The notes beneath the pieces were generated by a model, which worked only from the letters and a program-made list of their open reading frames with translations, did not search any database and was not told where the DNA came from. Shown piece after piece: positions 46,439-62,941 of a stretch of 64,000 bases of DNA; position 1 is the stretch's first letter, and each line of letters starts with the position of its first letter. Source of the stretch: Christiangramia sp. (GTDB taxonomy: Bacteria; Bacteroidota; Bacteroidia; Flavobacteriales; Flavobacteriaceae); the NCBI RefSeq assembly GCF_029937855.1, contig NZ_JAPYPC010000005.1, forward strand, positions 54,616 to 118,615. The letters run 5' to 3'. The position numbers and the translations under genes are program-made.

Positions 46439-46921
46439 ATGAAAGACTTGAAAGACCTGTTCGAACATCAATTAAAAGACCTTTTTAGTGCTGAAAGTCA
46501 GTTGATCAAAGCTTTACCAAAAATGGTGGAGAATGCTAATGACGAGAAACTAAAAGAAGCTTTTGAAAGCCACCTGGAAGAGACCAGGGAGCATAAGAGC
46601 AGATTAGAGGTTATATGTAAAGAACTTAACATTAGCCCGAAAGGAGAAACTTGTAAAGCAATGAAAGGTCTTATTGAAGAAGCTGAAGAATTTTTACAGG
46701 AAGACGCTTCAGAAGATGTTCGCGATGCCGGCCTTATTGCAGATGCACAGCGTGTGGAACACTATGAAATTTCCGGTTACGGTACGCTGGTACGCTATGC
46801 AAAAGAACTGGGGCATGAAGATATCGCCAAAAAATTACAGGAAACCCTGGATGAAGAGTATGATGCCGATGAAAAACTGAACAAACTGGCAGAATCAAGG
46901 CTGAACCAGGAAGCTAAGTAG
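46439..46921 (+). CDS. Ferritin-like YciE/YciF (DUF892) protein
   Basis: LKDLFSAESQL, HLEET, CKAMKGLI and AQRVEHYEISGYG motifs. Confidence 0.92.
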   Translation: MKDLKDLFEHQLKDLFSAESQLIKALPKMVENANDEKLKEAFESHLEETREHKSRLEVICKELNISPKGETCKAMKGLIEEAEEFLQEDASEDVRDAGLIADAQRVEHYEISGYGTLVRYAKELGHEDIAKKLQETLDEEYDADEKLNKLAESRLNQEAK

Positions 46922-47336: not shown

Positions 47337-47802
47337 TCAAAAATCTTATACTGTCGAAGAGGCTTTACAAAAGCTGATGCAATTTTGTGCCTACCAGGAC
47401 AGATCTCAAAAAGAAGTGGAAGACAAGTTGGATGCGATGCGCATGATCCCACAGGCAAAGGAAAAAATTATTAGTTGCCTTATGCAGGAGAACTTTCTGA
47501 ATGAAGAACGCTTTGCCAGATCGTTTGTGCGGGGGAAATTCAGGATAAAAAAATGGGGCAGGATAAAAATAAAACAGGAACTTAAGAAAAAAGAAATATC
47601 CACACCTATAATTAAGTTGGGACTTGCAGAAATAAAAGAAACAGATTACAGAAAAACGCTTTATGATCTGGCAGAAAAGAAAGAGGAAAAGATAAATGAG
47701 TCCAATTCATTTAAAAAGAAAACAAAACTTGCAGATCATTTACTGCGGAAAGGCTATGAAGCTAATCTCGTATTTGAATGTGTAAACGAGATTATTGACT
47801 AA
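47326..47802 (+). CDS. recX: Regulatory protein RecX
   Basis: FCAYQDRS, FLNEERFA, KWGRIKI and LLRKGYE motifs. Confidence 0.93.
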   Translation: MKHDQKSYTVEEALQKLMQFCAYQDRSQKEVEDKLDAMRMIPQAKEKIISCLMQENFLNEERFARSFVRGKFRIKKWGRIKIKQELKKKEISTPIIKLGLAEIKETDYRKTLYDLAEKKEEKINESNSFKKKTKLADHLLRKGYEANLVFECVNEIID

Positions 47803-48673
47803 TAGCATTCTTTTTATGAGTGCGTTTTATGGCCTGCTCATTCTTATAATCTATCCATTTTTGTCCTCTTAGCTTACGCATATAATTATCAAAATGTCTC
47901 ATAAAAACAAGGTTATAAACTGCTTTTGAAAAATTTGTCAGCGTTCTGGGAGTGGCCCTTAAGCTCATGGAAAATCCTGCAGTGAGATACGTCATGTGGT
48001 GCCAGTAACCTTCAGGCATATACAGGGTTTCACCATGGTTTAATTCTGTAATATATCCCTTCGCTTTTTTTAGCACAGGAAATTTGTTGAAATTCGGGTT
48101 GTTGAAATCAATATCTTCCCGGGCAATGAGTGCATGAGGAACTTTATATAAATATTTACTTTCTGAAGGAGGAAATAAGATACATTGCTTTTTTCCGTGG
48201 AAATGAAAATGAAGGATATTCGCATAATCGATGTCGTAATGCATAAAAACCTTGGAATTTTCACCTCCAAAGAACAACATAGGCAATTGTTTTAAAAACC
48301 GAAGGCCCACATCGGGGAACTTAAAATCTTTCTGAAGACTTGGCACTTCCTTCATTAAATGATAAAGGAAAATTCGATAGCTGGTAGGCCCTGACTTTAG
48401 CAGTGCGATATATTCGCTCATCTTCATATTTGCATGCGGCTCGTTGAACTTGTATTTTGAAGAAATTGGACGATCGTCATATAGTGGTACTGTTTTTTCA
48501 CCGGCTACTTCCTCGATATAATCAAGACTCCATTTATTATAAGCCGGCCAGTCATCTATAAGCCTTTCTATAACCACAGGCTTTTGTGGACGCACATACT
48601 TCTCCAAAAAATCTGCTTTTGAAATTCGCTTTACTCGTGGTATTTGTTCAAGTTTCATATTATCGTTCTTCAT
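47792..48673 (-). CDS. JmjC/cupin_8 Fe(II)/2-oxoglutarate dioxygenase-like protein (copy 2)
   Basis: HYD...WH facial triad (MHYDID; EGYWHHM); GKKQCILFPP; ATGA overlap with the upstream paralog. Confidence 0.88.
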   Translation of the reverse strand: MKNDNMKLEQIPRVKRISKADFLEKYVRPQKPVVIERLIDDWPAYNKWSLDYIEEVAGEKTVPLYDDRPISSKYKFNEPHANMKMSEYIALLKSGPTSYRIFLYHLMKEVPSLQKDFKFPDVGLRFLKQLPMLFFGGENSKVFMHYDIDYANILHFHFHGKKQCILFPPSESKYLYKVPHALIAREDIDFNNPNFNKFPVLKKAKGYITELNHGETLYMPEGYWHHMTYLTAGFSMSLRATPRTLTNFSKAVYNLVFMRHFDNYMRKLRGQKWIDYKNEQAIKRTHKKNAISQ

Positions 48674-49542
48674 TCTTCAATACCTGCCTTTCTATGGGTT
48701 CTTTTTATTGCTAGGTTGTTTTTATAATCTATCCACTTTTGACCTTTTAACTTACGCATAAAATTATCATAATTTCGGGTAAAAAGCAGCTTATTCATAA
48801 CTTCTACTATTTTTCGGGGAGATTTGGGCAACGAACGCAACGTTAAAGATAAACAGGCGGTTTCATATTTTATAAAATGCCACCACTCACTGGGGATATA
48901 CAAAGCCTCACCATGCCCCAGTACAGTTTCATAGCCTTTCGCTATTGCCAGCGCGGGATATTTTTCAAAATCCGGCTTATCCATATTTATAATTTCCATA
49001 CTTACTATGGAATATGGTACTTTATATAGAAAATCTGTTTGATCTGGAGGATACAGAATAATTCTTTTCTTCCCTACAAAATTAAAATGGAAATTATTGG
49101 CCAGATCCATATCGTAATGCATCACTACTTTTGAACCTTCACCGCCCACAAACAGTACCGGTAGCTTTTTAAAAAATTTGATTCCTAAATCTGGGTACTG
49201 AAAATCCTTTATTAATTCTGGACAATTCTGAAGTAGGTTGAAAAAGAACATTCTCAGGTCTGTAGGACCTTTTTTCAGGATCTCGATATAATCCTTAAAC
49301 GGTAGCTTCATCGCCGGGCCATGTGAATTTTGCCTTCCTTTGGCCGGTTTCCCATCATACAGAGGAACCACCACATCTCCTGCTTTTTCCCTAAAATACT
49401 CAAAATCCCACTTTTTATAGGCAGGCCAGTTTTCAGCAAGGTTCTCAATTACTACCGGTTTCTTCGGAACAAAATATTCCCTTAAAAAATCTTCTTTAGA
49501 AAGATTCTTTCTTCTGGGAATATTTTGAAGATCTAGTTCCAA
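48670..49542 (-). CDS. JmjC/cupin_8 Fe(II)/2-oxoglutarate dioxygenase-like protein (copy 1)
   Basis: HYD...WH facial triad (MHYDMD; SEWWHF); GKKRIILYPP; TTG start 15 nt after the bioB stop. Confidence 0.88.
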   Translation of the reverse strand: MELDLQNIPRRKNLSKEDFLREYFVPKKPVVIENLAENWPAYKKWDFEYFREKAGDVVVPLYDGKPAKGRQNSHGPAMKLPFKDYIEILKKGPTDLRMFFFNLLQNCPELIKDFQYPDLGIKFFKKLPVLFVGGEGSKVVMHYDMDLANNFHFNFVGKKRIILYPPDQTDFLYKVPYSIVSMEIINMDKPDFEKYPALAIAKGYETVLGHGEALYIPSEWWHFIKYETACLSLTLRSLPKSPRKIVEVMNKLLFTRNYDNFMRKLKGQKWIDYKNNLAIKRTHRKAGIEE

Positions 49543-49557
49543 AATTGATAAATTAAG

Positions 49558-50649
49558 CTAGGCTTTTGCTTTGGTCTTTTGCTGAGCATCCAGATTTCTC
49601 TCAATTTTATGACCTGGTCGTGACCATTTAGGTTTCTCTCCCTTGCTTTGATATTGTGAATTTTCAGCATCAATACTTTCTGGCTGAGATTTTTTCTCAA
49701 AAGCTTTCTGTGGATTTAATCCCAGCATTTTAAACATTTCCATATCCTCATTTACATCGGGATTTGGAGTTGTCAAAAGTTTATCTCCTGCAAAAATAGA
49801 ATTAGCCCCGGCAAAGAAACACATTGCCTGGCCTTCCCTGCTCATTTGGGTTCTTCCTGCAGAAAGTCTAACCTGCGTTTCCGGCATTACGATTCTTGTA
49901 GTGGCTACCATACGTATCATCTCCCAGATTGGTACCGGCGCCTGCTCCTCCAGCGGAGTTCCCTCTACCGGCACCAAAGCATTGATCGGCACAGATTCCG
50001 GCTGCGGATTCAAAGTAGAAAGCGCCACCAGCATTCCTGCACGGTCGGCTTCACTTTCTCCCATTCCTATAATTCCCCCACTACAAACAGTCACATTTGT
50101 TTTTCTCACATTCCCTATAGTATCCAGTCTATCCTGATAACCACGAGTTGAAATTACTTCTTTATAATATTCTTCTGAAGAATCCAGGTTATGGTTATAA
50201 GCATACAGTCCTGCTTCCGCCAAACGTTCAGCCTGATTTTCAGTAAGCATTCCCAGCGTGCAACAAACTTCCATATCCAACTTATTGATGGTTCTTACCA
50301 TTTCCAGCACATTATCAAATTCTTCACCATCTTTTACATTTCTCCAGGCAGCACCCATACAAACCCGGGAACTTCCAGAAGCCTTTGCGCGCAAAGCCTG
50401 TGCTTTAACTTGATTTACGCTCATAAGATCGTTCCCTTCAAGATCTGTATGATAACGAGCTGCTTGTGGGCAATAGCCACAATCTTCCGGGCAACCTCCC
50501 GTTTTTATGGAAAGCAAAGTGGATACCTGAACGGTATTTGGGTCGTGATGTTCGCGGTGAATGGTAGCTGCTTCATAAAGCAATTCCATAAAAGGCTTAT
50601 TATATATTTCTAGGATTTCTTCTTTTGTCCAGTCGTGTTTTGTTGCCAT
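49558..50649 (-). CDS. bioB: Biotin synthase
   Basis: SIKTGGCPEDCGYCPQ radical SAM motif; YNHNLD, CSGGIIGMGE, ESVPIN and RLSAGR motifs. Probable start MATKHDW. Confidence 0.98.
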   Translation of the reverse strand: MATKHDWTKEEILEIYNKPFMELLYEAATIHREHHDPNTVQVSTLLSIKTGGCPEDCGYCPQAARYHTDLEGNDLMSVNQVKAQALRAKASGSSRVCMGAAWRNVKDGEEFDNVLEMVRTINKLDMEVCCTLGMLTENQAERLAEAGLYAYNHNLDSSEEYYKEVISTRGYQDRLDTIGNVRKTNVTVCSGGIIGMGESEADRAGMLVALSTLNPQPESVPINALVPVEGTPLEEQAPVPIWEMIRMVATTRIVMPETQVRLSAGRTQMSREGQAMCFFAGANSIFAGDKLLTTPNPDVNEDMEMFKMLGLNPQKAFEKKSQPESIDAENSQYQSKGEKPKWSRPGHKIERNLDAQQKTKAKA

Positions 50650-50666
50650 GTAATTCAATTTGTATT

Positions 50667-50738: not shown

Positions 50739-51893
50739 CTATTTTCTTCCTACGAGAATTGAAACGGCATTTCCCCCAAATCCTACAGAATTTACCAAAA
50801 TATTTTGCAGTTTATCGGGTTCATGTTTAAATTCTGAAAAAGGAACCGGTAAAAACTGCTGCTTTTGAAGCATTAAAATGGCCATTTCAAGGCTCAGTAT
50901 TCCGGAAGCTGCAAAGCTATGTCCTGTTTTCCATTTATTGCTGGTAATTGCCGGGAATTTATCCTGAAAAACAGCTTTTACCGCATTTACTTCCGCCAGA
51001 TCGCCACCAATAGTTCCAGGCGCATGCATCACAATGGCATCTACTTCTTTTTTATTCATATTCCCCATCGCCATTTTCATGGAATCCTGAAGGCATTTCC
51101 CATTCCTGGAAAGGGACGCCCCATGTTTCAATTTTTCATTGGCATAGCCAATTCCCTTAATGATTGCTAATGGATTCGAATGGTCTTTGGAAGTTAACCC
51201 CACCATTCCAGCTCCTTCGCTTAAGATCATAGAGTTTTTAGATTTTTCCATATCCAGGGAACGGCAGGGAAAATCGATATTTTCAGATGCATAGATTTTC
51301 ATCGCATTCATCTGGGCAAGAGTAAATCCTGTAAGAGGAGCTTCACTTCCTCCCGCCATAAAACTTTTTGCCATCCCGCTTTTAATCCAGGCAATAGCAT
51401 TGAGAATGGCATGCATTCCTGTGGAACAGGTGACGCTATGGGAGAATTCAGGACCATTTAGCTGAAGGTCCTGCGCTACCCAGGAAGATATATTTCCTAA
51501 AGTTGTGGAAGGAGAACTATAGGTAGAAGACTTTCCGGTTTCTAGGAATTCTTCATGATATTTTTCAAATAAACCTGTCGCACCCCTGCTGCTGCCTATA
51601 TTTATTCCGGTATCGTGTCCGTTAATTGCAGTAGTATCGCAAGCTTTTCTAGCTGCAAGAATTGCATATAAAACGGAATTATCCAGATAGCGATATTTAG
51701 TGTTTTTTTCCTTTAAGCTGGAAACATCCTTCTTAATTTCTTCAGATAAATTCCCTACCCAGGAAATCTGAGCTCCAACCTTCTTAAGCTCAAACAAATG
51801 ATCGTCGGAAATATAATTTTTCCAGATCTCTTCTGAATTTTTTCCTAATGGGGAAATTGTGCCTATAGAAGTTATAGAAACCGTATTTTTCAA
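50739..51893 (-). CDS. Stand-alone FabF-like beta-ketoacyl synthase
   Basis: Catalytic Cys (SVTCSTG), His (VMHAPGT) and His (KWKTGHS); C-terminal NSVGFGGN; GGSEAP. Confidence 0.88.
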   Translation of the reverse strand: MKNTVSITSIGTISPLGKNSEEIWKNYISDDHLFELKKVGAQISWVGNLSEEIKKDVSSLKEKNTKYRYLDNSVLYAILAARKACDTTAINGHDTGINIGSSRGATGLFEKYHEEFLETGKSSTYSSPSTTLGNISSWVAQDLQLNGPEFSHSVTCSTGMHAILNAIAWIKSGMAKSFMAGGSEAPLTGFTLAQMNAMKIYASENIDFPCRSLDMEKSKNSMILSEGAGMVGLTSKDHSNPLAIIKGIGYANEKLKHGASLSRNGKCLQDSMKMAMGNMNKKEVDAIVMHAPGTIGGDLAEVNAVKAVFQDKFPAITSNKWKTGHSFAASGILSLEMAILMLQKQQFLPVPFSEFKHEPDKLQNILVNSVGFGGNAVSILVGRK

Positions 51894-52626: not shown

Positions 52627-53916
52627 TTAAAAAACCTCAAGCACCTCTTCCATAACCGAATAGAGTTTCTGAAGCTCTTTTTCTGAAATCACATAGGGCG
52701 GGACGATATAAATAGTATTACCTAACGGGCGCAGAAATACGCCATTATCCATAAAAAACCTAAAAAGTTTATTCCGAAGGTTTCCGTAACGTTCCATTTT
52801 CACATTCAATTCAAAAGCTAAAATCACCCCCTTACTCCTCGCGTTTTTAACTTTTGGATGGCTTTCCAGCTTATTGGCAAATTCCAAATTAGCCTCTGTA
52901 ATATTTTTAATATTGCTCTGTATTTTTTCTGAAACAAGTAATTCTACTCCTGCCAGGGCTGCAGCACAGGCCAAAGGATTAGCTGTATAGGTGTGACCGT
53001 GAAATAAACCTTTGGCAATATCATCTGAGTAAAAAGCATCATACACTTTTTGTGAGCACGAAGTTAAGCCCATAGGAAGCAATCCCGCTGTAAGCGCTTT
53101 AGACATACACACCACGTCTGGCTTTTCATCTATATAATCTGAAGCAAAATAGCTGCCTGTCTTCCCGAAACCGGTCATTACTTCATCTGCGACCAGAATA
53201 ATCTCGTTTTTACGGCAAATCTTAAGGATTTCATTTAAACCCTGAGCATCATGGAATTTCATGGCAGCTGCACCCTGAATGAGGGGTTCGTATATAAAAC
53301 CGGCAATAGTCTGTTTTTTAATAAGCTCCTTCAAAAATGAAAGCACCTCCTGGTTATTTTCACCCGTAGGCACCGGAATTCTTTCCACCCGGATAAAATG
53401 ATCCTGAAAAGCGCCATTATAAACAGATAAACCTGAAACCGACATAGCCCCGAAAGTATCGCCATGAAAACCTTCTTCAAAAGCCAACATGACCTTACGA
53501 TCATTCCCCAGGTTATGATGGTATTGCAGCGCCATTTTTATTCCTATCTCTGTAGCTGTGGAACCATTATCGTTGAAAAACAATTTTTGCTGCCCTTGAG
53601 GCAATATTTTAATTAGGGCTTCAGAGAGTTTAACAGCCGGTTCGTGCGTAAATCCGCTAAAAACCACCTGATCCAGCTGTTGCATTTGCGCAGCAACTTT
53701 TTTAGTGAGGTAATCATTACAATGCCCGTAGACAGAGGTATACCAGGAAGAAATTCCATCGATATACTCATTCCCTTTATCATCTGTAAGGATACATCCC
53801 TTTGCTTTTTTAATAGCCAGCATTTCCGGACTTGTTTTATGCTGGGTAAGCGGATGCCACAGGTGTTTTTTATCCCTCTCTCCTAAGCTTTTCTCTTTCA
53901 ATTCTACATCTCGCAT
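52627..53916 (-). CDS. bioA: Adenosylmethionine-8-amino-7-oxononanoate aminotransferase
   Basis: HLWHPLTQH, DGISSW, FHGDTFG, DEVMTGFG, SKALTAG and HGHTYTANP motifs. Confidence 0.97.
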   Translation of the reverse strand: MRDVELKEKSLGERDKKHLWHPLTQHKTSPEMLAIKKAKGCILTDDKGNEYIDGISSWYTSVYGHCNDYLTKKVAAQMQQLDQVVFSGFTHEPAVKLSEALIKILPQGQQKLFFNDNGSTATEIGIKMALQYHHNLGNDRKVMLAFEEGFHGDTFGAMSVSGLSVYNGAFQDHFIRVERIPVPTGENNQEVLSFLKELIKKQTIAGFIYEPLIQGAAAMKFHDAQGLNEILKICRKNEIILVADEVMTGFGKTGSYFASDYIDEKPDVVCMSKALTAGLLPMGLTSCSQKVYDAFYSDDIAKGLFHGHTYTANPLACAAALAGVELLVSEKIQSNIKNITEANLEFANKLESHPKVKNARSKGVILAFELNVKMERYGNLRNKLFRFFMDNGVFLRPLGNTIYIVPPYVISEKELQKLYSVMEEVLEVF

Positions 53917-54527
53917 AATCTCTTTCTAAATTTTTCAGCGTATTCACTTATCACCATCTCATCAAAATATGGTTCTTCTTCAATACGGCCAATAACCTTT
54001 ATTTCCCCATGAATTTTGATAGCCTCTTCGGTTGTTGGATGTTCAGCACCACTAAAAATAACTCCTATTTTTTCAAACCCTCTATTCTTAAGATTTTCAA
54101 TACTTAATAGAGTATGGTTTATACTTCCTAAATAATGCCTGGAAACAAGGATTACCACATCCTCTTTAGAAATTAAATCGGCAATCTTTTCTTTCTCATT
54201 TAACGGAACGAGTAATCCCCCGGCACCTTCTATTACAAGTTCTCTATCGGTCTCTGGCCGTTTAATTTCTTTTAAATCGATCCTAATTCCATCAATTTCA
54301 GCGGCAGCATGTGGACTCATCGGAGTATGAAGTGCATAAGCATTTTTATGAAAGACGCTTTGATCATTTTTCACCAGCTTCTGAATTTTATGCGTATCAG
54401 AATGATGTAGATCGCCCGCCTGTATCGGCTTCCAGTAATCGGCTTGCATAGCTTCTGTAACAATTGCTGAAACGATTGTTTTTCCTACTTCGGTTCCTAT
54501 TCCGGTAATAAAAAATGTCTTTGGCAT
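53904..54527 (-). CDS. bioD: Dethiobiotin synthase
   Basis: TGIGTEVGKT, WKPIQAG, IEGAGGLLVP and LGSINHT motifs. Confidence 0.97.
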   Translation of the reverse strand: MPKTFFITGIGTEVGKTIVSAIVTEAMQADYWKPIQAGDLHHSDTHKIQKLVKNDQSVFHKNAYALHTPMSPHAAAEIDGIRIDLKEIKRPETDRELVIEGAGGLLVPLNEKEKIADLISKEDVVILVSRHYLGSINHTLLSIENLKNRGFEKIGVIFSGAEHPTTEEAIKIHGEIKVIGRIEEEPYFDEMVISEYAEKFRKRLCEM

Positions 54528-55684
54528 TACTTATTATTTGCCACAAAATTACTCAGGACTTTTAAGACCTCCGAGATTTCCTCGAAAGAATTATAGCTAT
54601 GAATACAAAATCTTAGTCTTTCACTTCCCGGGGGAACGGTAGGAGAAAGAATAGGCTTAACATTAAAGCCTTTATTCTGAAGTTCTTCGGCTGCCAGTTT
54701 TACTTTCGTGTTTCCTGAAATTATACAGGCCTGAATGGCAGAATCGCTTTCTAAAAAAATATCTTTAAGAGCATTTTTATGTTTTTCAGCTTTAAAATGC
54801 ACAATATTCTCCCGAAGCTTGTGTAAAGCTTCCCGATCTGTTTCCAAATAATTATACGCGGCACTAATGGTCGCAATAGAATGTGGTGAAAGCGCCGTGG
54901 TATAAATTAAACTTCTGGAAAAATTGACCAGATAATCTTTTAGCCCCTTGCTACCAAGAATTACTGCTCCATGACCGCCCATTGCTTTTCCGAAAGTGTG
55001 GATTCTGGCAAAAATCCTGTCCTGGATATTTAATTCCTGTGCCAGTCCCTCTCCTTTTTCGCCAATCACTCCCGTGGCATGGGCTTCGTCTAAAATTAAT
55101 TTTGCAGTATAATTCTCAGCAATTTTAATTATTGTTTCAAGATCGGGCGAATCGCCATCCATGGAAAAAACAGATTCGGTGACGATATAAATTTCAGAGG
55201 TTTCACTCCTGGGTGTAAAACGATTTAATTTTCGTTTCAGGTCTTCAAGATCGTTGTGCCGAAATTTATAATTCTTTGCCAGGCTCATCTTCAAACCGTC
55301 CCTTATGGAAGCATGAGAATATTCGTCGTAGAGAATGATATCATTCTTTTGTGCAACTGCTGAAAAAAATCCAATATTAGCATCGTAACCCGAATTAAAT
55401 ACTAGGACAGCTTCAGAATCATGAAAATCGGCAAGCTGATGCTCTAAAATATTAAATAAGGGATGATTTCCGGATAACAACCTGGAGCCGGTAGATCCAT
55501 TTAAAACTTCATATTTTTCCAGTATCTTTCCTGTATTTTTTAATATTATTTTAGAACGTGAAAAACCCAGGTAATCATTAGAAAAAAAATCTACGCCATC
55601 AGAAAATGATAATAATTCTCTAAAAGAATTTTCTTCTTTTCTCCTTTGGAGTCTTTTCTCTAATTTTAAAGGCAGCTTTTTCAT
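54527..55684 (-). CDS. bioF: 8-amino-7-oxononanoate synthase
   Basis: FFSNDYLG, GSTGSRLLSGN, SHASI, SVFSMDGD, DEAHA and TFGKA motifs; first gene of the bioFDA run. Confidence 0.93.
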   Translation of the reverse strand: MKKLPLKLEKRLQRRKEENSFRELLSFSDGVDFFSNDYLGFSRSKIILKNTGKILEKYEVLNGSTGSRLLSGNHPLFNILEHQLADFHDSEAVLVFNSGYDANIGFFSAVAQKNDIILYDEYSHASIRDGLKMSLAKNYKFRHNDLEDLKRKLNRFTPRSETSEIYIVTESVFSMDGDSPDLETIIKIAENYTAKLILDEAHATGVIGEKGEGLAQELNIQDRIFARIHTFGKAMGGHGAVILGSKGLKDYLVNFSRSLIYTTALSPHSIATISAAYNYLETDREALHKLRENIVHFKAEKHKNALKDIFLESDSAIQACIISGNTKVKLAAEELQNKGFNVKPILSPTVPPGSERLRFCIHSYNSFEEISEVLKVLSNFVANNK

Positions 55685-55718
55685 TTCGCTAAAATATAAA
55701 ACAGGAATCTTTTAAATT

Positions 55719-56168: not shown

Positions 56169-56573
56169 TTACTTATCTTTCATTTTGCTATGGTCCACAT
56201 TATCTTCAGGAGTATCATCTACCACACTTTTTAAAACATGAGTGTTTTTTTGATATTTACCTCTTAATTCATCCACCACAGATTTATCCCATAACTTTAC
56301 ACCAATAAAATAAGAAGCCCTGCCAATAAGGTGCGCGCTTACAGGAGCGGTAAGAAATAAGAATAAGATGATTACAAATGCCTGTGAAGTTACATCTGCA
56401 TTACTAAAATAAACGGTGGTAGAAAGTAAAACCAATCCTACTCCAAGCGTGGCAGCTTTAGTAGTTACAGAAATTCTTAAATATGTATCTGGCATTCTTA
56501 CGATCCCTATTGCTGCTAAAAGCACAAACATGGCTCCAAGTGTCGCAATTGCCGCTATTATTATGTCTATCAT
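56169..56573 (-). CDS. mrpG: Mrp/Mnh Na+/H+ antiporter subunit G
   Basis: RMPDTYLR..KAATLG and LTAPVSAH motifs. Confidence 0.93.
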   Translation of the reverse strand: MIDIIIAAIATLGAMFVLLAAIGIVRMPDTYLRISVTTKAATLGVGLVLLSTTVYFSNADVTSQAFVIILFLFLTAPVSAHLIGRASYFIGVKLWDKSVVDELRGKYQKNTHVLKSVVDDTPEDNVDHSKMKDK

Positions 56574-56842
56574 TTCCTTTTTCTTTTTTCCAGATAATAA
56601 GATAAGGCTACGGTACTCAAAAAAGCAATAAGTGCCAGAATAAGTGCCGTATCCATCAAAGTAGACTGATTGTATATAATACTGTACACTGCAATAATTC
56701 CTATACCTGTCGTGATTAAAAGATCTAATGAAACAATCTTATCTGCTATGCTTGGACCTTTGATAAATCGCCAGAGAATTAGCACGGCCGAAACGACCAA
56801 AATTGGTAAAATTATATAATGTAAATATTCAAATAAACTCAT
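56570..56842 (-). CDS. mrpF: Mrp/Mnh Na+/H+ antiporter subunit F
   Basis: GPSIADKIVSLD motif; three TM helices. Confidence 0.93.
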   Translation of the reverse strand: MSLFEYLHYIILPILVVSAVLILWRFIKGPSIADKIVSLDLLITTGIGIIAVYSIIYNQSTLMDTALILALIAFLSTVALSYYLEKRKRK

Positions 56843-57318
56843 GACAATACTTCCAGTATTCTGCGTTCAAAACCATTCTTAATTCCCCTGACAAACTTTT
56901 CCCTGTCTTTTATATACATCGCATGCACAAAAAGCACTTTTTTATCATTGGAAACATCCAGGCTTAATGTCCCCGGTGTGAGAGATATCATATTAGCTAG
57001 CATGGTAATCCCAATATCTGACTTTATATCTAATGGAACCATAATTATTCCCGGGGTCATTTTAAATTTAGGAGTGATCACCTCGTAAGCTACTTCAATA
57101 TTCGCTTTTATAAGTTCATAAAGGAAATAAACTAATAATATAATAACCTTAGGGACTATTAAAAAATATTTACTCCTTTTTCGTCCTATCGTAATCAACC
57201 AAAGAATATGAAAATTCAGAAAGAAGCCAAAAAGATAATTCTCAAATGAAAAATCTCCTGTCAGGGCAACCCAGACAAAGGTCAGTAATATGTTCGACAG
57301 AAATTTATTCTTCATCAT
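56839..57318 (-). CDS. mrpE: Mrp/Mnh Na+/H+ antiporter subunit E
   Basis: ANMISLTPGTL and LFVHAM motifs. Confidence 0.93.
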   Translation of the reverse strand: MMKNKFLSNILLTFVWVALTGDFSFENYLFGFFLNFHILWLITIGRKRSKYFLIVPKVIILLVYFLYELIKANIEVAYEVITPKFKMTPGIIMVPLDIKSDIGITMLANMISLTPGTLSLDVSNDKKVLFVHAMYIKDREKFVRGIKNGFERRILEVLS

Positions 57319-57321
57319 TCC

Positions 57322-58836
57322 TTAATTCTTCGATTTTAAAACCGCATCTATATAACCCTGACTATTCACAAGTTCATCTGCAATCCTTGCGGAAAGCTCC
57401 TGAACATGTTCAGCTCCAAAACCTATATACAAAGATACGATACTCAAAAAAGCCACAGGAATTATAAACTGAAGTCTTTTAGTATTTGTCATTTTTGAAA
57501 AATATCCAAAATTACTCCTCAAGGGAAGCTCTTTACCCTCTTTCCAGAATACTTCAGCCCATAATTTTGCAATGATCACCAGTGTGATAAAACTGGCGAA
57601 GATAATGGCACCCACGGTAATATAAGAACCATTTGTAAAGCCTGCTTTTATCAGATTTATCTTGGGCCAGAATCCTGAGAGTGGTGGTATCCCCACTAAT
57701 GAAAACAATGGGATAAAAAGCAATAGGCTAATTTTCGGCCAGTTTGCATAGATACCTCCAAGGTCACGCATAGAGTTTGTTCCATTTAAACGATAAACCA
57801 CTCCGCTCACCATAAAAAGGTTAGTTTTTACAATGATATCATGGATAAGATAAAATATTGCTCCTGCAATCGCAATTTCAGTAAACATTCCTAACCCGGC
57901 GATCATATACCCAATATGGCAAATAATAAGATAGGAGAACACCTTTCTCATATTGTTTTGGATCAAAGCACCTATCCCCCCACTAACCAGGGTAAGAATG
58001 GCAATGATCATAATGATATTGTTCAGAAAAGGATCATCTACAAAAATGAGCGTAAATACACGGATCAAAGCATACACCCCGACTTTGGTCAACAATCCTC
58101 CGAAGATCGCGGAAACTGCGAATGGAGGGGTATGATAGGATGCTGGCAACCAGAAATATAATGGAAATACCCCTGCTTTAATTCCGAAGCCAATCAGGAA
58201 TAACAGTGCAGTGATTTGTACCAGCCCCCTATTCTCGACTTCAGCTACCTGCCCCGCAAGATCGGCCATATTTAAGCTTCCGGTGATCCCGTAAAGTACA
58301 GCGATTGCGGTGAGAAAGATCATGGAAGCAAGGATGTTCAGTGTAAAATATTTTACTGCTCCTTCCAGCTGGGCCTTTTCACCACCAATAGTGATCAACA
58401 CAAAGGAGCTTATAATAATGATCTCAAACCATACATACAGGTTAAATATATCTCCTGTTAAAAATGCACCATTAAGCCCAAGCAATAAAAAGTGGAATAT
58501 AGGAAAATACCCAAACCGCAAACGGTCTTTCAATACGGAGGCCCCGGAAAAAATAGAAACTGCCAAACCTGAAATTGCAGTTAATAATACCAGTGTGGCT
58601 GAAAGCATATCTGCCACGAAAGTAATACCAAAGGGAGCTTCCCAATTTCCTGCCTGGATGGTTTGTGTCCCATTGCTCCAGATATAGCTAAAGAGCCATA
58701 TTGCCAGACCCAAACTGAGAATACTTCCGAAGACGCTAAACACCTTCTGAAATTTTATTTTGGACCAGCCGAACATCAGAATGATACTGATGGCCATCTG
58801 AAGAAAAAGAGGATATAAAACTATTTGTTCTGTCAT
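57322..58836 (-). CDS. mrpD: Mrp/Mnh Na+/H+ antiporter subunit D
   Basis: [26 protein letters not shown] and [11 protein letters not shown] motifs. Confidence 0.95.
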
Positions 58837-59186
58837 GAATCTTCGTCGGTTGCGTTCATTTCATCCAGATCATCAGTTCTAACAACCGTGTGAGCCCTTT
58901 TCACTAACACGATTGCAAAAGACTGAAGTCCGAAACTTATAACGATTGCTGTAAGTATTAAAGCCTGGGGAACGGGATCTGCAAAGGCTTCTGTAAAAAC
59001 CTTGGCATCACCTGGAATAATTGGCGGAGATCCTTTAGTAATCCTTCCCAGAAGAAAGATTAAAAGGTTGGCGCCATTTCCAAGCAGGATAATCCCTATG
59101 ATCAATTTTACCATACTTCGGCGAAGCATCATATAAATGCCTGTACCATATAAAATTCCTACCATTAATGCTAAAAGGATCTCCAT
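58833..59186 (-). CDS. mrpC: Mrp/Mnh Na+/H+ antiporter subunit C
   Basis: [14 protein letters not shown] motif. Confidence 0.95.
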
Positions 59187-59187
59187 A

Positions 59188-59604
59188 TTAGGCCGATTCT
59201 GAAATTGTAAAAATTATGGTCAAAGTCACTCCGTTTACCACCAGGTAAACCCCTATATCAAAAAATAAAGCTGAACCCACACTTCCTAAAATTGCAATTT
59301 CATCGTGGGACCATAAGCCCGTCATAAAGGGAAGGTCAAATAATGCCACTGGCGCGAGCCCTGCTAAAAATGCTATTGCCAGGCCTACCGGAAGCAAAAA
59401 TCCCGGGTGCATGATAAGCAACTCCCTGGTTTTTGAAAGCCCATTAGCGAAAGAATGTAAAATAAAAGCAATAGACGCAATTAAACCTCCTACAAAACCA
59501 CCTCCAGGAAGGTAATGCCCACGAAGCAAGATAAAAATAGAAAACACCAACAATACCGGTAAAAGGTAGTTAGAAGCTGTTTTTAGAATTATAGTAGTTC
59601 GCAT
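59188..59604 (-). CDS. mrpB: Mrp/Mnh Na+/H+ antiporter subunit B
   Basis: [13 protein letters not shown] and FFDIGVYL motifs. Confidence 0.95.
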
Positions 59605-59607
59605 CCT

Positions 59608-61962
59608 TTAATTTTCTTTTTTCCCGGTTCTTTCATTCAGTCTCGTATCTGCATATCTTCTTCTGTCCTTCATTTTCAATCTTAGCTTCATCAAACCAAA
59701 AACACCAACTGCTGCAATAGATAATACTGAAATCTCTATCAACGTATCTGCACCTCTAAAATCAACTAAAATCACATTTACCACATTCTTACCGTGAGCC
59801 TCAATATAAGAGTTTGCCGCATAAAACTCTCCGACTTCTTTACTCACGGGTTCAGAAAGCACTTCTAAAGCAAGGGTGGTAATAATCAATCCGAAGATAG
59901 TAGATAAGATCCCATCCCTAAGTCTGGTTTTATAATCTGATAGTTTTAAATACTTCGGAAGCTTATAAAGCACAAGAACAAACAATATTACGGTAAGTGT
60001 ATCGATTGAAAACTGGGTCATTGCAAGATCGGGCGCACTATAAAAAACAAATATCAAACAAATGGAAAGTCCAACTACACCCATTGCCGCAACGGCTGCC
60101 AGCCTGGATTGAGTGAAAACGGTATAAAAGATCCCGGCAATTAGGATCAAAGTGGTGGTAATTTCGTAAACCGTGATTTTTGAAAGGGAATTATAATTTA
60201 TAGCAAATCGGGTGTTTCCTATCATAATGTAGCCTACCAGCACTACTAAAAAGAGAATGATAATAGAAATATAATTCCTTAAATATCCATTCTGAAAGAA
60301 GTTCGTCCAGAAATTGGATACTGAAATAAACAGGCCATTAAATTTCTCCAACAAAGTTTTGGGAGCAATAAAATCGAACCTTGCAATAGCATTTTCTAAT
60401 TTCTTTGAAGGTTTTAAAATAAAATAAAGCGCTGTGCCGACTCCAATTGTGATTAAACTTAGTATAAAAACCAAATTCAATCCGTGCCATAAGGCCAGGT
60501 GAATTTCTGAAGCATCTGCTCCCAAAGATTCCACCACAGGTTTTATTAAGGCTGATTCAATTATAAATGGCGCCACACCAAATACTACTCCCAGTAGGGC
60601 CAGCAAGAGCGGGGGAACCCACATAACAAGTCCTGGACTTTTAACATTAGAATGTTCTTCTGGAAGTTTTCCCGTAAAGGGTTTTATTCCGGCAACAAAA
60701 CCGGCATACAACAACAGGATTTTTGTAAGTACAATCGCAATTAATACTAAAATCACCAGAGTTTCAGAGTTGTTAGATGCTTCGTAAGTCAGTTCCTTTC
60801 CAACGAAACCAATCGTGGGAGGAATACCCGCACTGGAAATAGCCGCCAGAATCCCAGCAATACCAACGGGTAGCATGACTTTATTTAATCCCGAGAGCCT
60901 TGTGACGTCACGGGTATGTGTTTGATGATCTATAATTCCCGTTACCAGGAATAAGGTGGCTTTATAAAGTGCATGTACAATGATAAATACCGCGGCTGCC
61001 AAAAATGCCTCCTGTGTTCCCAACCCGGTTAAGAAAACTAATATCCCTAAAGCTGAAATTGTGGAATATGCCAGGATACCTTTAAGATCTGTTCTAAAAA
61101 TAGTATGAACCGCTGAATATAGCATAGTTATTCCGCCAACAAGAACTAAAGTGGTATTCCAAATATCTTCTCCCCCCAGCACCGGCGTAAAGCGCATCAA
61201 CAGATAAATCCCAGCTTTTACCATAGTTGCTGAATGCAGATAGGTAGAAACAGGTGTGGGCGCTTTCATTGCTCCTGGCAACCAGAAATGAAAAGGAAAT
61301 TGTGCAGATTTAGTAAAAGCGGCTCCAAAAATGAATAGTACTGCTAAAAAGTACAACTCATTTCCGCGGATCGCTTCACTCATGGTAAGCATTTCAGAAA
61401 TACTATAAGTTCCGGAGATATTATTTAAAAGAAGCGCACCCGCCAACAGGAACAACCCACCTATTCCAGTAATCCCCAAAGCTGTCAATGCCGATTTACG
61501 GGAAGCAGGATTGGTATTATTAAAACCAATTAGAAAGAAAGAACTAATACTTGTTAATTCCCAGAACACGAACAACGTGATCATATTATCAGAAAGTACC
61601 AGCCCAAGCATGGCACCCATAAAAGAAGCCAGATACCCATAAAATCTATCCAGATATTCGTGTCCTTTCAGATAAGAAGAAGTATAAGCAAAAACTAAAA
61701 ACCCAATTCCGGTGATCATTAAAGAGAATAGCAAGGCGAGGCCATCCATTTTAAAATCCAGATCCACTCCAAACGAAGGAATCCATTCATATGATCTCAT
61801 CATCACTTCTCCATTTGATACCGGAGAAATGAACTGGGCAAAATAAAAAAACAGCCCTAACGGAATTAAAGATGCAAGTATGGAAAGCTTACCTTTAAAA
61901 AATCTTCCCGCGAAAACGAGAAAAATAGAGAATAAAAAACCTGTAAGAATTGCGGTAAGCAT
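59608..61962 (-). CDS. mrpA: Mrp/Mnh Na+/H+ antiporter subunit A
   Basis: FWELTSISSF, KSAQFPFHFWLP, PTPVSTYLHSATMV and NVVNVILVDFRGADT motifs. Start moved to MLTAIL (61962) because a -7 element overlaps the longer ORF start. Confidence 0.96.
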   Translation of the reverse strand: MLTAILTGFLFSIFLVFAGRFFKGKLSILASLIPLGLFFYFAQFISPVSNGEVMMRSYEWIPSFGVDLDFKMDGLALLFSLMITGIGFLVFAYTSSYLKGHEYLDRFYGYLASFMGAMLGLVLSDNMITLFVFWELTSISSFFLIGFNNTNPASRKSALTALGITGIGGLFLLAGALLLNNISGTYSISEMLTMSEAIRGNELYFLAVLFIFGAAFTKSAQFPFHFWLPGAMKAPTPVSTYLHSATMVKAGIYLLMRFTPVLGGEDIWNTTLVLVGGITMLYSAVHTIFRTDLKGILAYSTISALGILVFLTGLGTQEAFLAAAVFIIVHALYKATLFLVTGIIDHQTHTRDVTRLSGLNKVMLPVGIAGILAAISSAGIPPTIGFVGKELTYEASNNSETLVILVLIAIVLTKILLLYAGFVAGIKPFTGKLPEEHSNVKSPGLVMWVPPLLLALLGVVFGVAPFIIESALIKPVVESLGADASEIHLALWHGLNLVFILSLITIGVGTALYFILKPSKKLENAIARFDFIAPKTLLEKFNGLFISVSNFWTNFFQNGYLRNYISIIILFLVVLVGYIMIGNTRFAINYNSLSKITVYEITTTLILIAGIFYTVFTQSRLAAVAAMGVVGLSICLIFVFYSAPDLAMTQFSIDTLTVILFVLVLYKLPKYLKLSDYKTRLRDGILSTIFGLIITTLALEVLSEPVSKEVGEFYAANSYIEAHGKNVVNVILVDFRGADTLIEISVLSIAAVGVFGLMKLRLKMKDRRRYADTRLNERTGKKEN

Positions 61963-61983
61963 ACTTAGTAAATCTGTTTGTCG

Positions 61984-61991
61984 CAAATATA
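61984..61991 (-). promoter_or_regulatory. -7 promoter element of the mrp operon
   Basis: TATATTTG on the minus strand, 21 nt upstream of ATG 61962. Confidence 0.6.
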
Positions 61992-62218: not shown

Positions 62219-62731
62219 ATGAAATCAAATTCTCTCCACATATTAAAAGGTTTGTTGTATGTTTCCTTCATAATATCTCTATTAACAGCTTTAGGTTCTT
62301 TAGGCATTGCAGCTTATATCGCTTTCATTGGCGACATGAATTTTGATGAAAGTAATTTTAGTTTTTTATTTCCAATTCAGACTAACAAAGCGGCCATATC
62401 ACTATTCCTACTGGGTTTCGCATTGTATTCAGCAATAGGCTTAATTGTGTATTTGATGCTTAAAATAATACGGAGTTTTGAGAAAGGGAATTTGTTCACG
62501 AATTATCAAATAGCAGGTTTTAACCTCATTGGTCAATTGATTATCTGGCTAACTATTTTGCAAAGTGCAGCTGAGTTCATTTTGAGTTTGGTATTTAAAT
62601 CTAGAATTGAATTTAAGCTGGAAGTGTCGGGTTTCTGGCTTCTTATAGCCTTGGGAGCGTTTTTTATCGTCCTATCCAAAGTTTTTCTACAGGCAAAAAA
62701 ATTAAAAGAAGAAAACGAACTAGCCATATAG
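62219..62731 (+). CDS. DUF2975 family membrane protein
   Basis: Four TM helices; GNLFT and AKKLKEENELAI motifs. Start moved to MKSNSL (62219). Confidence 0.88.
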   Translation: MKSNSLHILKGLLYVSFIISLLTALGSLGIAAYIAFIGDMNFDESNFSFLFPIQTNKAAISLFLLGFALYSAIGLIVYLMLKIIRSFEKGNLFTNYQIAGFNLIGQLIIWLTILQSAAEFILSLVFKSRIEFKLEVSGFWLLIALGAFFIVLSKVFLQAKKLKEENELAI

Positions 62732-62734
62732 TAT

Positions 62735-62941
62735 ATGTCCATCATTATAAATCTTGACAAAATCCTGGAGAAAAGAGGAATGAAAAGCAATGAGCTGGCA
62801 GAAATTATTGGGATCACCACCGCGAATCTTTCCATTCTAAAAACCGGAAAAGCAAAGGCGGTTCGTTTTTCAACCCTCGAAGCGATCTGCAAAGAATTGG
62901 ATTGCCAGCCTGGTGATATTTTAGAATATCAGGCTTCTTAG
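62735..62941 (+). CDS. Xre/Cro-family HTH regulator (YozG-like)
   Basis: ELAEIIGITTANLSILKTGKAKAVRFSTLEAIC..LDCQPGDIL. Confidence 0.93.
   Translation: MSIIINLDKILEKRGMKSNELAEIIGITTANLSILKTGKAKAVRFSTLEAICKELDCQPGDILEYQAS

Follow-up and report, generated by a model that had tools for sequence, protein, structure and literature searches.

We analysed a 64,000-nucleotide stretch of a Christiangramia sp. genome (contig NZ_JAPYPC010000005.1; hereafter the window), which carries a biotin operon containing a stand-alone ketosynthase gene, here termed the bio-type ketosynthase (KAS). As shown in Table 1, the minus-strand gene order is bioF, bioD, bioA, a gene for a SET-domain protein, the KAS gene, bioB and two Cupin_8 genes. 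The original prediction, made from the sequence alone, described the KAS open reading frame (ORF) correctly in its extent, strand, TTG start and length. It also placed the gene between bioA and bioB; the gene does lie within the bio operon, but it does not adjoin bioA, as the SET ORF intervenes. No terminator-like sites were found between the genes of this row, the interval from bioB to the Cupin_8 pair included. RNA evidence for co-transcription was also sought, and the sequencing runs holding the window sequence were DNA or metagenome only. Searches of the 64-kb window by tblastn with E. coli FabH, FabD, FabG, AcpP and BioC returned no match at E ≤ 1; fatty acid synthesis and acyl carrier protein (ACP) genes are thus not found near the KAS gene, as had been claimed.

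Table 1. Positions of the operon genes, key KAS codons and flanking elements in the Christiangramia window
Feature	Position	Strand	Basis
bio-type KAS, 384 aa, TTG start, TAG stop	50739..51893	minus	ORF and Pfam
Ser101-Ser102-Arg103 codons (GSSRGAT loop)	51585..51593	minus	codons verified
Active-site Cys156 codon (FabF Cys163)	51426..51428	minus	alignment to E. coli FabF, codon verified
Gln194-Met195 codons (replacing FabF Gly201-Phe202)	51309..51314	minus	alignment, codons verified
His290, Lys320 and His325 codons (FabF H303, K335 and H340; decarboxylation/condensation)	50919..51026	minus	alignment, codons verified
bioF	54527..55684	minus	TIGR00858, 341.8 bits (below cutoff of 426.45); class I/II aminotransferase fold; 33% identity to E. 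coli BioF
bioD (dethiobiotin synthase)	53904..54527	minus	TIGR00347, 120.8 bits, above cutoff
bioA (7-keto-8-aminopelargonic acid aminotransferase)	52627..53916	minus	TIGR00508, 538.6 bits, above cutoff
SET-domain methyltransferase-like ORF, 199 aa	51949..52548	minus	Pfam SET, 42.9 bits
bioB (biotin synthase)	49558..50658	minus	TIGR00433, 407.4 bits, above cutoff
Two tandem Cupin_8/JmjC-like genes	48670-49542 and 47792-48673	minus	Pfam
-7 box-like site TATATTTT	55691..55698	minus	7/8 match to TAnnTTTG
Run of membrane-protein ORFs	56169-61986	minus	by eye
Palindrome pair TTATCG-N5-CAATAA	62167-62214	plus	
DUF2975 membrane protein	62219-62731		
Small XRE/HTH_26 regulator	62735-62941		

The encoded protein carries the N- and C-terminal Pfam ketoacyl-synt domains (PF00109 and PF02801) and aligns to E. 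coli FabF at approximately 26% identity. Its score against the FabF model TIGR03150, 146.6 bits against a cutoff of 493.75, bears out its earlier description as divergent; none of the NCBIfam ketosynthase models comes close to its cutoff, and the DarB/FabH-type models match marginally. Alignment to E. coli FabF places Cys156 at C163, His290 at H303, His325 at H340, Lys320 at K335 and Phe372 at F400 within the GFGG motif, with Asp298 and Glu301 completing the catalytic set. The Cys-His-His triad was therefore rightly read as intact, and Cys156, His290, Lys320, His325 and Phe372 are invariant among 142 representatives of the family. The motifs flanking these residues do differ from those of FabF, as had been noticed, VMHAPGT standing for NAHGTST and NKWKTGHS for TKSMTGHL. 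Full-length homologues at 36-96% identity are plentiful; the gene is real and under selection.

To place the protein structurally, we built an AlphaFold (AF2) model from a 121-sequence alignment, with a mean predicted local distance difference test score (pLDDT) of 96.7; it superseded a first model from 13 sequences, in which the pocket loops were of low confidence. The best Foldseek matches of the model are FabF crystal structures, with template modelling (TM) scores of 0.89-0.91. The fold is thus of the KAS I/II type with Cys-His-His, not the KAS III type with Cys-His-Asn to which BioZ belongs. In fold and catalytic residues the protein agrees with FabF; its model score is below the FabF cutoff, the back gate is not hydrophobic, and the association of acpP with fabF is not seen.

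We read the columns of the acyl pocket from the 142 full-length representatives, which extend down to 36% identity, taking positions from the E. coli FabF alignment. Arg103 occupies the position of FabF Ile108 in all 142 sequences, and the same column is invariant in the 121-sequence alignment; it is retained in the Bdellovibrionota and Hymenobacter members. By these alignments, Arg103 would be the basic residue of the acyl channel that the original prediction had proposed looking for. Its surroundings are also changed: Ser102 stands for Gly107 (130/142), Ser127 for Val134 (141/142), Thr131 for Ile138 (138/142), Thr155 for Ala162 (140/142), Gln194 for Gly201 (141/142) and Met195 for Phe202 (119/142), while Pro292-Gly293 takes the place of Thr305-Ser306 (139/142 and 142/142). 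A loop of 12-14 residues in FabF (PPTINLDNPDEG, the 'PPTIN...' loop) is deleted in the bio-type KAS. The GS[SA]RG motif and the triad are kept together in distant bio-linked members, but not in unrelated ketosynthases of Bacteroidales and Xenorhabdus recovered by the same scan.

In the model, Arg103 lies in the loop between β-strand 95-100 and helix 106-119, the element that bears Ile108 in FabF. The Ile108-Phe202 back gate of FabF sits at about C7-C8 of the bound acyl chain, and the I108F substitution restricts chain length (PMC9006962). An Arg at this position would therefore be expected to reach the ω-carboxylate of a C5 chain, such that the longer side chain of Arg103 would meet the ω-carboxylate of a glutaryl group carried on Cys156. 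Given that Arg, Ser, Thr and Gln are found at the gate and pocket positions, the hydrophobic gate of FabF appears, judged from the aligned sequences, to have been turned into a cationic, hydrogen-bonding site across the family.

We then evaluated how widely the family is distributed and how closely it follows the biotin genes. An exhaustive search over 1.84 billion cluster representatives (clusters at 50% identity) returned 418 clusters at E ≤ 1e-30, and relatives turned up in at least 593 species when a single genome was scanned for each, the closest named homologues being from Christiangramia (formerly Gramella). A third scan extended the family to Hymenobacteraceae, Saprospiraceae, Salibacteraceae, metagenome-assembled genomes (MAGs) of Bdellovibrionota and one 'Deltaproteobacteria' MAG. 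Of 157 family loci, 141 carry a bio gene no more than 4 kb away and in the same orientation as the KAS gene. In a set of 84 loci, made up of the 80 closest and four distant MAG loci, 80 have bioA upstream of the KAS gene and in its orientation, 76 have bioF, bioD and bioA all upstream, 62 have bioB on the KAS strand, and two lack bio genes altogether. The gap between bioA and the KAS gene is often 11-200 bp in this set, and in one locus (L090) the two genes overlap. Gene orders include bioB-F-D-A-KAS, bioF-D-A-KAS-bioB, SET-KAS-bioB, KAS-bioB-F-D, bioF-D-KAS (in the Bdellovibrionota MAGs) and bioF-KAS; linkage is kept in members only 32-36% identical to the window KAS, in two phyla and in at least six gene orders. 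As a guard against ascertainment bias, a further scan was anchored on BioA of Hymenobacteraceae (Hymenobacter, Pontibacter, Adhaeribacter and MAGs). Here, among the 32 loci with clustered bio genes, 27 have the KAS gene after bioA; bioA is solitary in Mucilaginibacter, Pedobacter and Spirosoma.

The bio-type KAS is an extra paralogue and not the housekeeping FabF. In Flavobacterium dankookense, the gene for a true FabF, scoring 595.9 bits where the cutoff is 494, lies beside rnc and only 2 kb from that for the bio-type KAS. The true FabF keeps GAGIGG, PFFIP, GGF, HGTST and PPTIN; its bio-type neighbour shows GSSRGAT, SPTTTLGN, AQM, H(C/A)PGT and the loop deletion. In general, the bio-type KAS and FabF share the FabF fold, the dimeric thiolase-type architecture, the Cys-His-His-Lys residues and the Phe gate within GFGG. 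They differ in that the bio-type KAS is found in bio operons, whereas FabF is found beside acpP or rnc.

Together these data allow us to propose a role for the family. That it acts at the pimelate stage of biotin synthesis is highly probable, and we favour, with rather less assurance, a FabF-fold analogue of BioZ that accepts a primer with a free carboxylate, most likely glutaryl, and condenses it with malonyl-ACP to give 3-oxopimeloyl-ACP. Whether glutaryl itself is the primer we regard as close to an even call. The suggestion in the original prediction of a FabF-fold BioZ analogue with an altered pocket finds support, at the level of sequence, in the linkage to bio genes, the position after bioA, the extra paralogue and Arg103. 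What was observed is that the gene belongs to the operon, that its catalytic residues are intact and its pocket substitutions invariant, that the fold is that of FabF, and that a related genome has a true FabF besides. What the primer is, whether ACP or coenzyme A (CoA) carries it, how Arg103 is placed and that housekeeping enzymes perform the reductive steps are inferences.

In the proposed mechanism, a stand-alone enzyme of the KAS I/II fold would have been recruited to biotin synthesis, and the C7 dicarboxylate pimeloyl would be made without methyl-ester protection. A short acyl thioester with a free ω-carboxylate, most likely the C5 species glutaryl-ACP or glutaryl-CoA, would first acylate Cys156. 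Its carboxylate would be bound by Arg103 together with Ser101, Ser102, Ser127, Thr131, Thr155 and Gln194, residues that stand in place of the back gate and pocket lining of FabF (Ile108, Phe202, Val134', Ile138' and Ala162). His290, His325, Lys320 and the Phe372 gate would then serve in the decarboxylation of malonyl-ACP, yielding 3-oxopimeloyl-ACP, which housekeeping FabG, FabZ and FabI would convert to pimeloyl-ACP. The BioF encoded in the same operon would consume this product. The enzyme would in this way be a functional counterpart of BioZ that had evolved from a different class of ketosynthase.

Several observations weigh against this assignment. No source of glutaryl-ACP or glutaryl-CoA was seen to be encoded near the KAS gene at the loci examined, and FabF-type enzymes are normally primed by acyl-ACP. 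The replacement of Thr305/Ser306 by Pro-Gly, together with the loss of the PPTINLDNPDEG loop, may bear on the use of malonyl-ACP. Finally, 16 of the 157 KAS loci have no bio linkage, namely those of Pedobacter, Solitalea, Capnocytophaga felis, three Pontibacter, two Flavobacterium and some MAGs. These unlinked loci are mostly explained by the dispersal of bio genes in the taxa concerned, such as Sphingobacteriaceae with their solitary bioA; in Pontibacter beigongshangensis, bioBFDA lies on one contig (L194) and the KAS gene on another (L119).

Three other explanations were considered. In one, the enzyme would take malonyl-ACP as primer, keep its carboxylate and act twice (C3 to C5 to C7), with FabG, FabZ and FabI working between the rounds, so that no methyl ester is formed. 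This one-gene version of the Desulfovibrio scheme described below would have no need of a glutaryl supply, in agreement with the finding that no glutaryl supply or loading gene is conserved with the KAS, and a polar, Arg-lined pocket could hold the carboxylates of chains that differ in length. We nevertheless consider it unlikely. The Desulfovibrio route requires dedicated ACP, FabG-like and FabZ-like genes, which were not found at the KAS loci or in the window; in chemical terms, 3-oxoglutaryl-ACP, the product of the first round, is a β-keto acid liable to lose CO2, and a malonyl-enzyme likewise tends to lose CO2 and become acetyl. In addition, an Arg at the back gate, given the C7-C8 position of that gate in FabF, would suit a C5 chain better than a C3 chain. 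Another explanation would make the KAS a helper of a classical BioC/BioH-type pathway encoded elsewhere, elongating the methyl esters of malonyl-ACP and glutaryl-ACP. In E. coli, FabH, FabB and FabF perform these elongations, and the known users of BioC do without a special KAS. Elongation of the glutaryl-ACP methyl ester by ordinary ketosynthases has indeed been described (PMC9006962), and three Hymenobacter loci carry a class I methyltransferase gene between bioF and bioD. This candidate for BioC was rejected, however: it is confined to two species, and its scores of 56-64 bits fall far short of the BioC model cutoffs of 185 and 342. The approximately 237 loci examined share no conserved BioC-like or esterase gene, and a neutral methyl ester leaves the invariant Arg and the polar pocket unexplained, which makes a helper role improbable.

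The remaining explanation is a role outside biotin synthesis, as a FabF paralogue for some other lipid or short-chain product, or as a decarboxylase or a catalyst of acyl transfer between CoA and ACP. It would accommodate the 16 unlinked loci, and bio operons do carry unrelated passengers (SET, DUF2007, flotillin and glycosyltransferase genes). Against it, linkage persists at the low identities and across the phyla and gene orders given above, minimal bioF-KAS units included; the residues for decarboxylative condensation are all invariant, and the unlinked cases fall in taxa with dispersed bio genes. We therefore consider such a role very improbable, and the FabF-fold BioZ analogue remains the assignment we prefer.

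Among known systems, BioZ is the closest in function. BioZ is a FabH-type enzyme of alphaproteobacteria that condenses glutaryl-CoA or glutaryl-ACP with malonyl-ACP (PMC7645780; PMC8024396), its product is finished by the type II fatty acid synthase (FAS II) (PMC8024396), and its residues Ser84 and Ser287 hydrogen-bond the C5 carboxylate of glutaryl (PMC12625853). Like BioZ, the bio-type KAS is a single ketosynthase gene in a bioBFDA-type operon in which bioC and bioH are not found, it has polar residues as putative holders of an ω-carboxylate, and the reaction proposed for it, from glutaryl thioester and malonyl-ACP to 3-oxopimeloyl-ACP with completion by FAS II, is that of BioZ. The two proteins are not homologous at the family level. 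BioZ has the FabH (KAS III) fold with Cys-His-Asn and a CoA primer tunnel, whereas the KAS has the FabF/FabB fold with Cys-His-His plus Lys and GFGG; and the carboxylate is held by two serines in BioZ, in contrast to the invariant Arg at the back gate proposed here.

In Desulfovibrio, genetic evidence shows that biotin synthesis depends on a FabF-like gene; the route also needs dedicated ACP, FabG-like and FabZ-like genes and is thought to be free of methyl esters (PMC10102598). This cluster (DVU2558-2565, with DVU2563 as the FabF-like gene) resembles the loci described here in placing a KAS I/II-type gene in a bio cluster; the Desulfovibrio hosts lack bioC and bioH. It differs in having its own ACP, a FabG-like gene and two FabZ-like genes and in needing a nitroreductase-like gene, none of which is conserved with the bio-type KAS. 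A different solution is BioE, a ferritin-like diiron oxygenase reported in December 2025 as a 'fourth route' in Weeksellaceae and some other Bacteroidota, including some Flavobacteriaceae (PMC12704756, PMC12915131). Like the KAS gene, the recently found BioE gene sits in bio operons of Bacteroidota; it supplies pimelate in hosts without the classical genes (PMC12704756, PMC12915131). BioE is an unrelated protein, and acts by oxidative cleavage of long-chain acyl thioesters. Neither the papers cited here on BioZ, Desulfovibrio and BioE nor the other literature searched was found to describe a ketosynthase of the KAS II type in the bio operons of flavobacteria.

We further checked the loci and the 64-kb window for other pimelate genes, and clustered all remaining ORFs of the bio loci as a survey of companions. 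No ACP, acyltransferase, CoA ligase, esterase or conserved methyltransferase is among the recurrent ORFs of the clustered loci, and none of the ORFs at the loci examined resembled BioE. As candidates for BioE we considered the Pfam-less ORFs of operons lacking the KAS (L225, L246), which proved to be membrane or β-barrel-like proteins without ExxH motifs, and a DUF892 ferritin-like ORF of the window (46439-46921), which was ruled out by its family. A small DUF2007/zinc-ribbon protein is encoded between bioF and bioD in approximately 49 loci of Flavobacteriaceae; the window lacks this ORF. It combines a DUF2007 domain ('putative signal transducing protein') with a Cys-rich zinc-ribbon at its C-terminus (for example L021, 4157-4537), and could be a biotin-related regulator or accessory. 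Flotillin/NfeD, glycosyltransferase and Mrp antiporter subunit genes occur in bio loci as passengers.

The SET gene is present in approximately 22 loci and is restricted to the Christiangramia/Salegentibacter/Gillisia/Salinimicrobium clade, and may be a clade-specific passenger or accessory of the bio operon. The window ORF is intact, with NHS and ELTDDY motifs, and its match to the KMT2D SET domain is weak; in a Gillisia MAG (L017) the gene leads a separate SET-KAS-bioB unit. The first gene of the Cupin_8/JmjC-like pair starts 15 bp past bioB and the two overlap by 4 bp, and on this spacing the pair is probably co-transcribed with the bio operon, although probably outside biotin function. One of the two copies, cupB, keeps its place beside recX in many genera, including those with bioB at another site, and in Flavobacterium it is with recX and not bioB. 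The combination of a SET-type gene with two JmjC-type genes in one operon is curious.

Elsewhere, the unlinked KAS genes of two Sphingobacteriaceae loci are followed by a gene for a small DUF6122 membrane protein (L086, 11298-11669; L093, 9176-9547) and one for a heavy-metal P-type ATPase, and in L093 the KAS gene shares 13 nt with the DUF6122 gene. The complete genome of Hymenobacter sp. 102 (NZ_CP188172.1) holds its bioB-bioF-methyltransferase-bioD-bioA-KAS operon twice (L140, L141); in one copy bioF and bioA are split into separate tblastn hits, which may represent frameshifts.

Upstream of bioF, the site TATATTTT matches the Bacteroidetes -7 box TAnnTTTG at seven of eight positions and ends 6 nt before the ATG. 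Of 66 related loci, 51 carry TAnnTTTG with its end 2-7 nt (mode 4) upstream of the bioF start codon, compared with 2 of 66 control stretches, and this spacing suggests a bio operon transcript with little or no leader. In the window a divergent MgtC-family gene begins only 34 bp away. We also considered as a biotin operator a paired palindrome, TTATCG-N5-CAATAA, which lies upstream of bioF in many loci. It goes instead with a divergent gene pair encoding a DUF2975 membrane protein and an XRE-type helix-turn-helix (HTH) protein: in the window the two copies are 31 bp apart, 6.5 kb from the bio operon and directly upstream of the DUF2975 gene. The palindrome pair is therefore probably an autoregulatory operator of the HTH protein and no biotin operator. 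The pair is also present in 17 related loci (for example L019, 4320-4367), and in other genera it lies between a divergent DUF2975 gene and bioF. The bio operon and the DUF2975-HTH pair adjoin in those genera; in the window they are separated by a run of membrane-protein ORFs, by eye an Mrp/Mnh-type multi-subunit cation/proton antiporter operon.

No other part of biotin biosynthesis is as variable, or as incomplete, as the origin of pimelate. The December 2025 papers count four pimelate routes, and none is named for most Flavobacteriaceae (PMC12704756, PMC12915131). We lean slightly towards the view that the bio-type KAS marks a previously unrecognised route to pimeloyl-ACP, in which a FabF-derived ketosynthase with an Arg-lined pocket handles chains with a free ω-carboxylate and takes the place of BioC/BioH, BioI/W, BioZ and BioE. 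This would be a fifth route if BioE is counted as the fourth, and in its strongest form it would be iterative from malonyl-ACP with no dedicated partner. It would extend over most Flavobacteriaceae and Hymenobacteraceae, other Bacteroidota and some Bdellovibrionota. If this is the case, the family would close a pathway gap in a substantial part of the Bacteroidota from marine, soil and host habitats, at least 593 species by one scan, and metagenomic calls of vitamin B7 auxotrophy or prototrophy that rely on bioC and bioH would need correction in these taxa. The family would also represent a second, independent retooling of a fatty-acid ketosynthase for a dicarboxylate primer, and thus a case of convergent evolution. 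The specificity switch would be a simple one, from Ile to Arg at the back gate of FabF, and could serve the production of C7 and other dicarboxylic acids.

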